From: a virus
Length of the DNA: 64,000 bases
Strand: one strand, 5' to 3'
IMG/VR virus record: IMGVR_UViG_3300005253_000051
Location: 1 to 64,000 of that record
Shown in pieces: positions 25,873 through 28,872 of the stretch. A program made the position numbers and the translations under genes. How positions within the stretch are numbered: the first letter of the stretch is position 1; each line of letters opens with the position of its first letter. The notes below the pieces were generated by a model, which worked only from the letters and a program-made list of their open reading frames with translations, was not told where the DNA came from and ran no database searches.

Positions 25873-27340
25873 GTCGCATCTTGAAAGGCGATGCGCTGCC
25901 ATTGCTAGTTCGTCGAGAACTGCGACGAGCCCGTCGCATCTTGAAAGGCGATGCGCTGCCATTGCTACGTCGCGTGCCACGCGCCAGGAGACGAGTTGGT
26001 GTGCCGTCGCATCTTGAAAGGCGATGCGCTGCCATTGCTACCTTCCTCTCGGCCGCGGGGTCGCATCTTGAAAGGCGATGCGCTGCCATTGCTACAGCAC
26101 GACCAACGTCGTTGGTTACGGCACCGACGTGTCGCATCTTGAAAGGCGATGCACTGCCATTGCTACCGCGAGCCATCGGTAAACAGTCGCTCGGCTCACT
26201 CCGTCGCATCTTGAAAGGCGATGCGCTGCCATTGCTACGTGGCCGACGCGGCGAAGATCCTGGGCGTATCCACGTCGCATCTTGAAAGGCGATGCGCTGC
26301 CATTGCTACCTCCTCGATGTAGTCGCATTCGACGACCGAGCACGAAAGGTCGCATCTTGAAAGGCGATGCGCTGCCATTGCTACTAGACGGACCGTCTTC
26401 GAGTACCCGTGATCCAGTCCGTCGCACCTTGAAAGGCGATGCGCTGCCATTGCTACCCGCGCTGGGATCAATTCCGTGAGGAGATCAGACTCGACGTCGC
26501 ATCTTGAAAGGCGATGCGCTGCCATTGCTACAAACCAGCGGCGGCGTTCGCGTTCGCTCCCTCCCCCAGTCGCATCTTGTAAGGCGATGCGCTGCCATTG
26601 CTACGCACCAACAGCGCGACGACTGCGCAGAATGACTGGGAGTCGCATCTTGTAAGGCGATGCGCTGCCATTGCTACAGCATATCCATGGAGGAGCACCC
26701 CGAGCTATCAGCCAAGGTCGCATCTTAAAAGGCGATGCGCTGCCATTGCTACGGATGCGGTGCGTACGGCGATTGCGTGAGACAAAGTGAGTCGCATCTT
26801 AAAAGGCGATGCGCTGCCATTGCTACCGAGCTGGGCGACGGCGAACAGAAAACAATTCTGGTCGTCGCATCTTAAAAGGCGATGCGCTGCCATTGCTACA
26901 TGCGGCGCACGCCGGTGAGAACAATGCTTCCGCGACGTCGCATCTTAAAAGGCGATGCGCTGCCATTGCTACAGGCAACCTGGCCCCTAGTGGAGTGGAC
27001 AATTCGACTGGTCGCATCTTAAAAGGCGATGCGCTGCCATTGCTACACGATGACATTTTTGCGTGCCCATTCATCTGGTGCGACGTCGCATCTTAAAAGG
27101 CGATGCGCTGCCATTGCTACGGATCGGTGCTCTAGCAATCAGCCCACGCTCTTTCGCGTCGCATCTTAAAAGGCGATGCGCTGCCATTGCTACCGTGAAG
27201 CCTACTGGCGACAGAGCTATCCGGGCACCGTGTCGCATCTTAAAAGGCGATGCGCTGCCATTGCTACAGCCCTACGTAAACGTGTCGATCTGCGTTGATC
27301 TCGCGTCGCATCTTGAAAGGCGATGCGCTGCCATTGCTAC
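25873..27340 (-). CRISPR. CRISPR array, 21 repeats of 36 bp and 20 spacers
   Basis: Minus-strand repeat GTAGCAATGGCAGCGCATCGCCTTTCAAGATGCGAC with CGCATC/GATGCG stem, unique 35-39 bp spacers except 24 and 18 bp near the distal end. Confidence 0.98.
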
Positions 27341-28872
27341 GGCGCCTCTGGATCTTTGTGTTTTTTCGCAAACCTAGGCGTGCTTTTTCGAGTGGTTGGG
27401 TTACGGACGTTTCCGATCGCATACATATTCATCATGTTTTGCGTGCTTACGCGGTCACGATCTTCTACGACACCACAGCCCCCACACGTCACCACGCGCT
27501 CGGGCCCGTAGCTGTTGACGAAGCTGCAAGCCGGGCAATGGTTGGTCGTATCGACCGCACAGACGACGGAAACACCCGTGATGCGGCCAAACACGCGCGT
27601 GATCTCTTCAATCACCTCGCCGGGCGCGGCATGATGACCCTGGCGTCGAGCCGGCTTCGGAAGGCTCGTTTTGTTTTCCTTCATCTTCTTGTGGCAGGAA
27701 TCCTTGATGACCGCATGCGCGTAGCGTCGGCGTAGATCACGCAGCCAGACGCGCACGTCGTTGCGCCGCCGGGTGACCGACCGGTTACGACACCCTGCTT
27801 CGTACTGCCACAAGTGCCGCTCCTTCTTGATCCACTTGGTGTGCTCTCCTGGTTTTGCGACACGTCGAACGCTCAGTGTCGATTTCAGTCGTGCGAAAAG
27901 TTTTTTGTTCGAGAATCCGCAAACGGCCAAAATGACGCTCCAAAAACGCTCTTGTTTTTGTAACTCCACAAGGTTCTGATCACGCGCTGATCGTATCCGA
28001 TCAGCTTGATCAGCATGCTTCATCCATTTAGGAGGGAGCACCAACTCGTACTCGGCACCGTCGTCACCACGCGCGTAAGCGATGCGCATGCCGTCGTCGG
28101 TCTTACGCCAACCGACATCGATAGCGACAGCGCCTCGCTCGGCGTTGTCTTTGCGCTCGGGGATATCGCGGCGCGTGAACTGCACAGACCAGATGACACG
28201 ATCTGCGACGTACTTGCGGGCGATCTTGACCCACGTGGCCGTACCTTGAAGGGGACGATGCATCTCGAAAGGTAGTGGCTCGGCCCACACAGGCGCTTGG
28301 CCTTTGGATCCCACACGAAGACGGAGCGTGTAGCGCTGTTGCTTTTTCTTACGAGGATCCGGCGCCGACTTGATCAAGAACATCCGGTCTGGATCCTTGT
28401 CGCGCTGGATTTGGACCGCACACATATCACCCTGGCGCCAGCTGCGGAATTTCACCAGCGAGAAAGATTCAGTCTCTTTCCAAGCCGCCGAAAAGTCTTG
28501 TTCGATCACAAGATAGGTGCCCCAGTATAGGCCACCTTCGGCCGCTTTCTTGCGGAACGGCTTCACGTCAAGAGGAGGCTCAGAACGGTACTGCTTGCGC
28601 AGTGCCTTGTAATGAGCGCGGCAAACCGGACAGAATTTCTTGCACTCGTGCTTTCGTGGTTTGCGTTTCTTGCTTTCCGCTTTATCACAGGTCGAACAAG
28701 ATTTTTTGCACACGTGTGTTGCCGGTGAAGGGGGACGATCCCCGCCCCACATAGTCGTGCGCCTCTCGTTCTCCGCTTCGACGAGACTGTTGTAGTAGAC
28801 ACGGCCCAGGTTCATTTGGGCACACAAGGTGTCCCCACCGGGGAGTGCTCCGTACTTGTAGACTTTGGTCAT
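27337..28872 (-). CDS. cas12m: Compact type V CRISPR effector, Cas12m/V-U1-like (511 aa)
   Basis: VYKYG start, GLYWGTYL, LRVGS..PVW..HRPL, RuvC-I AVAIDVGWR, RuvC-II AVIKD, CPAC/CGGC Zn ribbon, RuvC-III DRD, abuts array. Subtype assignment by eye. Confidence 0.8.
   Translation of the reverse strand: MTKVYKYGALPGGDTLCAQMNLGRVYYNSLVEAENERRTTMWGGDRPPSPATHVCKKSCSTCDKAESKKRKPRKHECKKFCPVCRAHYKALRKQYRSEPPLDVKPFRKKAAEGGLYWGTYLVIEQDFSAAWKETESFSLVKFRSWRQGDMCAVQIQRDKDPDRMFLIKSAPDPRKKKQQRYTLRLRVGSKGQAPVWAEPLPFEMHRPLQGTATWVKIARKYVADRVIWSVQFTRRDIPERKDNAERGAVAIDVGWRKTDDGMRIAYARGDDGAEYELVLPPKWMKHADQADRIRSARDQNLVELQKQERFWSVILAVCGFSNKKLFARLKSTLSVRRVAKPGEHTKWIKKERHLWQYEAGCRNRSVTRRRNDVRVWLRDLRRRYAHAVIKDSCHKKMKENKTSLPKPARRQGHHAAPGEVIEEITRVFGRITGVSVVCAVDTTNHCPACSFVNSYGPERVVTCGGCGVVEDRDRVSTQNMMNMYAIGNVRNPTTRKSTPRFAKKHKDPEAP

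Follow-up and report, generated by a model that had tools for sequence, protein, structure and literature searches.

A phage-borne Cas12m-like reading frame that ends inside the first repeat of its CRISPR array, with a conserved leader motif in its coding sequence

The promoter of a CRISPR array is usually located in the leader, and upstream motifs are present in the leaders of type I-E and I-F systems. Among the described systems closest to the one treated here, the published Cas12m proteins self-process their CRISPR RNAs (crRNAs), cutting in the repeat upstream of the scaffold (accessible parts of PMC11013384 and PMC10442227); self-processing is known for MmCas12m2, MsCas12m and PmCas12m, and PmCas12m cuts after the second to third repeat nucleotide (bioRxiv 10.64898/2026.03.26.714355, accessible part). 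In the portions of these three reports that are accessible there is no mention of an overlap or of a leader. In Thermus Lalka phages, whose Cas12r effector is also followed by an array, spacers were described to differ at the effector-proximal end and host-mediated acquisition was proposed (accessible part of bioRxiv 10.64898/2026.04.20.719267). Here we describe the effector gene and the CRISPR array found in a stretch of 64,000 nucleotides (nt), the window in what follows, which comprises positions 1 to 64,000 of the IMG/VR virus record IMGVR_UViG_3300005253_000051, a phage genome of 81,505 base pairs (bp) that has direct terminal repeats and is rated 100% complete by CheckV. We consider it likely that this is a Cas12m-like phage locus with neither an adaptation module nor an intergenic leader, in which the effector open reading frame (ORF) is translated through the leader and stops in the first repeat. 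Its main features are the following.

27337..28872, minus strand: Cas12m-like effector ORF (P0001), 511 amino acids, from the ORF call and its translation
27337..27339, minus strand: TAG stop codon, which is nt 2-4 of the first repeat, from the sequence, the repeat call and the translation
27305..27340, minus strand: first (ORF-proximal) repeat, 36 nt, with a 6-bp stem, a 9-nt loop and then AC, from the repeat call and fold
25873..27340, minus strand: CRISPR array of 21 repeats and 20 unique spacers, from the repeat call

The ORF ends in ...GCG CCG TAG and overlaps the first repeat by 4 nt (G-TAG); it spans every base up to and into this repeat, and no non-coding stretch lies between the cas gene and the array. 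Since GTAG opens 20 of the 21 repeats on the minus strand (the distal-most one opens with CTAG), the TAG is an intrinsic part of the repeat, and the first-pass annotation of this DNA was right in stating that the stop codon, at 27339-27337, is supplied by the first repeat, which starts at 27340. TAG terminates 25 of the 71 ORFs of at least 150 amino acids in the phage genome and ARAGORN found no tRNA gene in the window, so there is no sign of TAG recoding. The genes around the locus are likewise closely packed.

The same annotation had named two observations that would speak against this arrangement, a frameshift that places the stop earlier and an array transcribed from the plus strand, and neither was encountered. 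Junction contigs from three public DNA runs, belonging to two marine sediment metagenome studies, contain zero insertions or deletions and a single substitution, at 27744; these contigs span 27311/27312..27900 or 27238..27900, break within repeats, which makes them uninformative on array variants and RNA ends, and one of the runs is possibly the source sample. L001, an independent contig, has a junction identical to that of the window. The repeat on the minus strand, GTAGCAATGGCAGCGCATCGCCTTTCAAGATGCGAC (36 nt), has its stem at positions -23..-18 paired with -8..-3, counted from the spacer and followed by AC, with compensatory changes in six of six stem pairs across 27 loci, and this geometry fits the Cas12m2 scaffold, as given in the accessible part of PMC10442227, on the minus-strand reading only. 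The array is therefore read on the minus strand, in the direction of the gene; in each of the 27 loci compared it follows the gene and shares its strand.

The whole of the close family shares the overlap between the ORF and the first repeat. Of 88 matches from a protein search, 50 are 38-51% identical over nearly the full length; these 50 and P0001 constitute the family alignment (A1), from which P0052 (75% of the query covered) and the more distant matches were left out. Related loci were obtained from metagenome contigs (12) and from IMG/VR (33), and a scan of a genome collection with the family alignment returned 234 pattern matches and no relative. In each of the eight distinct close-family loci the ORF ends within the first repeat, which argues against a chance overlap, and the same holds for the near-identical L001 and the frameshifted L008; the annotation had proposed such a comparison of homologous junctions. 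The stop occupies nt 2-4 of the repeat for both the window and L001 (gap between the end of the stop and the repeat start, -4), nt 11-13 in L003 and L016 (-13), and the hairpin loop, at nt ~25-29, in L002, L004, L005, L007, L008 and L015 (-27 to -29), with two frames relative to the repeat in use, CAA-TGC-CAG and AAT-GCC-AGC. The L005 contig holds one repeat only before its end, and that of L006 ends before the ORF. The effector of L008 (L008:4001-5443) is frameshifted with respect to its start, with 13 stops in one frame, and was dropped from the codon analyses; the frame of its 3' end still enters the first repeat.

The ends of the 51 family proteins point in the same direction, although tails with no accompanying DNA are indirect evidence only. 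A total of 35 fall into three classes (xCQxxGL-like in 22, NASxxA-like in 8 and xxEC/QC in 5), which in the loci with DNA are the peptides encoded by the first repeat in two frames; the other 16, including that of the window, end at or soon after AKRHKK. Close-family members are 41-55% identical to one another. Distant relatives present a gap of +10 to +192 nt between ORF and repeat, yet L010, L022 and L024 overlap, that is, 3 of the 20 loci outside the close clade. A maximum-likelihood (ML) tree of 28 ORFs groups the eight close loci in a clade (Shimodaira-Hasegawa-like approximate likelihood ratio test, SH-aLRT, of 100) and places L010, L022 and L024 scattered among gapped loci; this tree comes from a quick ML search and is midpoint-rooted, and because of this root the direction in which the overlap changed is not readable from it. 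The stops of L022 and L024 are also located at nt 2-4 of the repeat, as TGA and TAA, respectively, and all three stop codons are thus used at this position, in different lineages.

Two further features, both inside the coding sequence, were recognized when the loci were anchored at the start of the first repeat.

27386..27395, minus strand: embedded leader motif CCACTCGAAA, at -55..-46 from the first repeat, from the motif scan and the relatives
27340..27405, minus strand: codons 490-511, a conserved tail, predicted disordered and read as a translated leader, from codon conservation and the predicted local distance difference test (pLDDT)

The motif (A/G)CCGCTCG(A/C)AA is present 52 ± 3 nt upstream of the first repeat in 26 of 27 loci, the alignment of 27 leaders including Virus Rctr197k and the MsCas12m plasmid locus. 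An exact GCTCG[AC]AA starts at -51..-54 in 18 of the 27, the background frequency in these loci being 0.028 per kb, and near-variants account for most of the remaining ones. In the leader alignment A2, C24 and G27 are invariant and C22, T25 and C26 at least 90% conserved; the GCTCG[AC]AA block, with two invariant columns and three more that are at least 90% conserved, is more conserved than the 5' half of the repeat. In six loci (L018, L032, L033, L036, L039 and L041) the motif does not code, and it is translated in the others, in frame 2 (14 loci), frame 0 (2 loci) or frame 1 (4 loci), while the stop moves from -195 to +30 relative to the first repeat and the motif keeps its position. Since its place is fixed whether it is non-coding or read in any frame, the leader signal is independent of coding. 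Judging from these alignments, we regard the motif as a signal at sequence level that belongs to the leader-repeat junction, with the ORF translated over it. The first-pass statement that there is no leader has therefore to be abandoned, as a motif conserved at a fixed distance lies inside the ORF, whereas its accompanying suggestion that any leader would be embedded in coding sequence agrees with what was found.

The coding side of this region is also unusually constrained at the nucleotide level. In the window the motif overlaps codons T493-T494-R495-K496, of which R495 and K496 are invariant in the family. Among pairs of the eight ORFs with the same amino acid, the fraction that uses the same codon is 0.38 over the whole gene (5852 pairs) but climbs to 0.64-0.85 in the last windows; when amino-acid composition is corrected for, the last of the 20-column windows ranks first, with a value that 0 of 20000 column permutations reach. 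The pLDDT of the C-terminal tail falls from 64 to 41. A second, -35-like box, TCTTTGACAA, occurs in the leaders of L018, L026, L032, L039, L041, L043, L045 and L047, at a variable distance of -19 to -165 from the first repeat, and is absent from the close family. A scan of viral contigs for the motif together with GCAAT gave 50 stretches, but only in L062 does an array begin ~55 nt beyond the motif; most of the 50 are chance matches to a pattern that was not strict enough and was discarded. The L062 stretch (L062:5522-5911) carries GACCGCTCGAAA ~55 nt upstream of the array, in a further viral locus.

The effector itself is Cas12m-like, and the system type V-M-like. Against PDB sequences, phmmer matched the Cas12m 23vw_A (1.3e-15) and Cas12m2 (8hio, 4e-9), Pfam gave only a Cas12f1-like TNB match, below threshold, and an NCBIfam search of the effector gave no match. 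The AlphaFold 2 (AF2) model, built with the 51 family sequences, has a mean pLDDT of 88.6, and its best Foldseek matches are Cas12m2 (8hio, 8hhl, 8hhm) and GoCas12m (8pm4), with E values of 4e-23 to 1.5e-19 and a template-modelling (TM) score of ~0.6; TnpB and Cas12f rank after Cas12m in the Foldseek listing. Both phmmer and Foldseek thus place the protein in the Cas12m fold (WED, REC, RuvC and TNB zinc ribbon), and the CxxC...CxxC cysteines (C446, C449, C463 and C466) are invariant in the family alignment. K390-D391 (27703-27708, VIKDS) align opposite the EE of RuvC-II in 23vw; Lys390 is invariant in all 51 family members, and D252 and D471/D473 are retained. With an invariant lysine at the RuvC-II position in place of the EE of 23vw, the effector probably binds DNA and does not cleave it. 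In a quick ML tree with midpoint root the effector falls in a separate clade, on a long branch. Cys/His clusters, HVCKKSCSTC and HECKKFCPVC, were also observed at amino acids 52-86 (window ~28615-28720); this segment has a pLDDT of 49-54 (residues 51-80) and varies widely in length among relatives. Elsewhere in the phage genome the PHROG matches include DNA polymerase, exonuclease, HNH endonuclease and primase, and Rfam gave 0 matches within the window at gathering thresholds.

Concerning transcription, a promoter-like motif was identified on both sides of the gene and its array.

28870..28906, minus strand: promoter-like motif TGAAT-N16-21-GTCT-N5-12-ATG, ending at the cas12 ATG, from a pattern scan
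25820..25857, minus strand: next promoter-like copy, 15 nt after the last repeat, at the start of the next unit, from a pattern scan

Seven matches to the motif were found where 0.23 would be expected, every one of them on the minus strand, and none of 100 shuffles gave as many; besides the two listed, the sites are 15192-15228, 32960-32996, 33478-33513, 35126-35162 and 47419-47455. An earlier form of the pattern, GAAT...CGTCTTA, matched once and was replaced by this looser, recurring one. Such a set points to a phage regulon whose transcripts would be nearly leaderless, with a box pattern like that of extracytoplasmic function (ECF) sigma factors. No copy lies within 25873-28870, and a sigma-70 scan of 25300-29500 gave 0 promoter-like sites; a terminator scan of the same region gave three terminator-like sites where 4.9 would be expected, each of them on the plus strand. 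Because the promoter-like motif brackets both elements and sigma-70-like sites are absent, cas12 and the array seem to form a single transcript. The first-pass proposal that the array must be the 3' extension of the cas mRNA is thereby favoured by the distribution of the promoter-like copies, which bracket the unit with none in between, and stands as an inference.

The array offers some indications of how it may change. Spacers are 35-39 nt long, except for distal ones of 18 and 24 nt, and on the plus strand the loop variants run, from distal to proximal, as TTGAAAGG in ten repeats, TTGTAAGG in two, TTAAAAGG in eight and TTGAAAGG again in one. L001, a 2.9-kb contig with ~97.9% identical DNA and an identical effector protein, differs from the window in spacer 1 and shares spacer 2 (L001:2742-2914 against window 27194-27340). 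As spacer 1 differs and the distal end is degenerate (the 18- and 24-nt spacers and the altered last repeat), the comparison, a single one, fits an array that may gain spacers at its ORF-proximal end. The second repeat of L001 has a C-type loop and that of the window a T-type loop. Twelve locus pairs were compared for array polarity and only the window and L001 were informative: ten pairs have identical arrays over the available spacers (L029 shows the first three only), and L003/L016 and L043/L045 have no spacer in common. Spacers duplicated within single arrays (3=13 in L018/L037; 7=12 and 14=19 in L043/L044) indicate that these phage arrays also change by internal duplication or recombination. 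No match to Cas1 or Cas2 was found in the complete phage genome, nor to Cas1 in the nine related virus records searched, four of which are at least 90% complete. As to targets, the best match of a spacer to the phage's own genome is 19 nt at 89% (E 0.43), and the first 20 nt of spacer 1 have no match in viral contigs; a candidate protospacer of spacer 1 in L011, exact over nt 2-17 (16 nt, L011:2102-2117) with differing flanks, was rejected as weak or due to chance. The L011 contig that holds this match also bears a fragment of a family effector. A search for an anti-repeat of a trans-activating CRISPR RNA (tracrRNA), by inverted repeats in 24800-29500, gave nothing convincing (best repeat-containing pair, 19 nt at 79%).

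We propose that a single transcript would start at the phage promoter that abuts the cas12 ATG, the pre-crRNA being the 3' part of the effector mRNA. By analogy with the published Cas12m proteins, the effector would cut after repeat nt 2-3 and split the guides from the message; we infer that the same cut would fall inside the TAG of the window and, in each of the close relatives, before the stop. As the cut would lie in or before the stop codon, the processed message would be left with no complete stop codon, which may restrain effector synthesis through negative feedback. For processing of this sort the closest parallel is TnpB, with its guide made from the TnpB mRNA. At the leader-repeat junction the -52 motif would act on DNA, most likely by directing a host integrase, provided in trans, as it inserts spacers; a function in transcribing the array is less likely. 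The full combination, in which a self-processed effector and guide RNA is subject to feedback, the stopless message being rescued and degraded, and the motif in the ORF lets the phage borrow a host integrase, is put forward tentatively, and we regard it as more speculative than the arrangement of the locus itself.

Several observations weigh against this reading. The polarity of spacer gain rests on one genome pair, and the blocks of repeat-loop variants do not fit a simple polar growth. The cut site is borrowed from another Cas12m, and 23vw_A matches the effector only distantly (1.3e-15). The sequencing runs found to contain the stretch include no RNA run. In the MsCas12m locus, which has been studied experimentally, the motif is degenerate (TTCGCGCAAAC) and the gap amounts to 151 nt. 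Elsewhere in the window the -52 motif shows no enrichment (three matches against 2.15 expected), which indicates that it is not a general phage promoter element, and it has no match to a sigma-70 box; the notion that it is a conserved RNA helix was dropped, since RNAalifold, applied to -75..+36 of the 27 loci, predicted the repeat hairpin only and no conserved helix upstream. Finally, a related basic tail, AKWAKRH, is present in L024, and the tail may have a protein function of its own.

Other explanations of the same data have to be considered. The array could be transcribed separately from the effector mRNA, from an internal promoter composed of the -52 motif and a TAnnTT-like hexamer (~-36..-31) within the ORF. 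Leaders are the usual place of array promoters, and the conservation at nucleotide level does peak in the last ~25 codons; TAGGTT, TAGATT, TAAGTT or TAAATT is found at -36..-31 in five of nine close loci, and 8 of the 27 loci, all of them distant relatives, have TTGACAA boxes in their leaders, as does Virus Rctr197k. The spacing between motif and hexamer, however, is ~11 nt and not 17, the TTGACAA boxes wander between -19 and -165 whereas the -52 motif is fixed, neither a sigma-70-like site (25300-29500) nor the promoter motif of the phage itself (25873-28870) is found there, and read-through from cas12 would persist in any case, so we hold an internal promoter to be possible but doubtful. The overlap might also be no more than compaction, the ORF having drifted over a short leader up to the first in-frame stop, which happens to lie in the repeat, with a neutral tail and no regulatory effect. 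The lability of the stop over -195 to +30, with sister loci that differ (L022 at -3, L026 at +44), the predicted disorder of the tail, the two reading frames used in the repeat and the tight packing of the neighbouring genes would all be accommodated by such a drift; it accounts poorly for an overlap kept in the eight distinct loci of a clade with 41-55% identity and recurring in 3 of 20 loci outside it, and for stops that, in every close relative, are at or after the published Cas12m cut site. We find incidental compaction rather unlikely, and, given where the stops lie, the message would be affected by processing irrespective of how the overlap arose.

An inherited TnpB-like layout, in which the overlap would be a relic of the omegaRNA scaffold within the tnpB ORF and the -52 motif its remnant, seems to us improbable. 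The fold does resemble TnpB, after Cas12m, the guide gene begins at or inside the ORF end on the same strand, and the TnpB guide is made from its own mRNA (accessible part of PMC10278001); but no conserved helix precedes the repeat, the motif is non-coding in six loci and up to 195 nt from the stop, guides come from a 21-repeat array and not from a single guide at a transposon end, and the tree, being midpoint-rooted, does not reveal a direction. The parallel with TnpB drawn in the first-pass annotation consequently survives as one of layout, a guide gene at the 3' end of the ORF; with no upstream structure and a stop that shifts around a fixed motif, inheritance of the overlap is not shown. 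Least credible of all, to the point of being negligible, is an artefact, either an assembly error or frameshift that misplaces the stop or an array transcribed from the plus strand: contigs from the three runs of two studies agree with no insertion or deletion, L001 and homologous junctions in eight other loci reproduce the arrangement, and the hairpin position and the strand of the array in 27 of 27 loci leave the minus strand.

The locus and its relatives constitute a conserved case of a CRISPR leader within coding sequence and of an effector stop within a guide RNA gene. They bear on how phage arrays devoid of Cas1-Cas2 may gain spacers and on a possible feedback of guide processing onto effector translation, with the predicted cut in or before the stop across the clade. 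If the proposal is true, effector synthesis would be throttled by its own guide-making and a coding stretch would double as CRISPR leader. How readily the end of an effector ORF merges with the start of a guide RNA gene is also of relevance to the passage from TnpB to Cas12. These proteins form a compact (~500 amino acids) Cas12m-like group, probably DNA-binding only, whose native cassette has no separate array promoter region.

Compared with the described systems, the locus is closest to type V-M (formerly V-U1) Cas12m, represented by MmCas12m2, GoCas12m, MsCas12m and PmCas12m, with which it shares the fold, a detectable sequence similarity, a 36-nt repeat with a 3' hairpin and terminal AC, no visible tracrRNA-like anti-repeat, and an array directly downstream on the same strand with no adaptation genes. 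The repeats of MsCas12m, from an Allomeiothermus silvanus plasmid, begin with GTAGCAA and end with GAGAC, and the GTAGCAA start is common to the window repeat. It differs in that the protein is shorter (511 amino acids) and in a separate clade, with the RuvC-II position apparently occupied by Lys390, in that the locus is phage-borne, and in the C-terminal extension of the ORF over the leader into the first repeat, where MsCas12m has its 151-nt gap. The Cas12r-CRISPR of Thermus Lalka phages is also a phage type V effector with an array almost directly after it and no adaptation genes; it has 15 bp between gene and first repeat and 29-bp repeats, whereas the gap in the window is negative (bioRxiv 10.64898/2026.04.20.719267, accessible part). 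The TnpB/omegaRNA pair of IS200/IS605 elements likewise has a guide gene that begins at, or within, the 3' end of an effector ORF of the same strand, but the overlap in the window is 4 nt (13 to ~29 nt in relatives) and not a long structured scaffold, and guides derive from a multi-spacer array instead of a single guide at the transposon end. With canonical leaders (types I-E, I-F and others) the locus shares a short motif at a fixed distance, of about five helical turns, and, as one genome pair suggests, may share a new-spacer end that faces the motif; it differs in encoding no cognate Cas1-Cas2 and in having the motif inside coding sequence. In a literature search of incomplete coverage, with supplements outside its reach, neither an effector ORF ending in the first repeat nor a V-M leader motif was reported. 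An ORF-embedded leader, a stop inside the repeat and a motif fixed at -52 are, within that coverage, new features in a Cas12m-like system.

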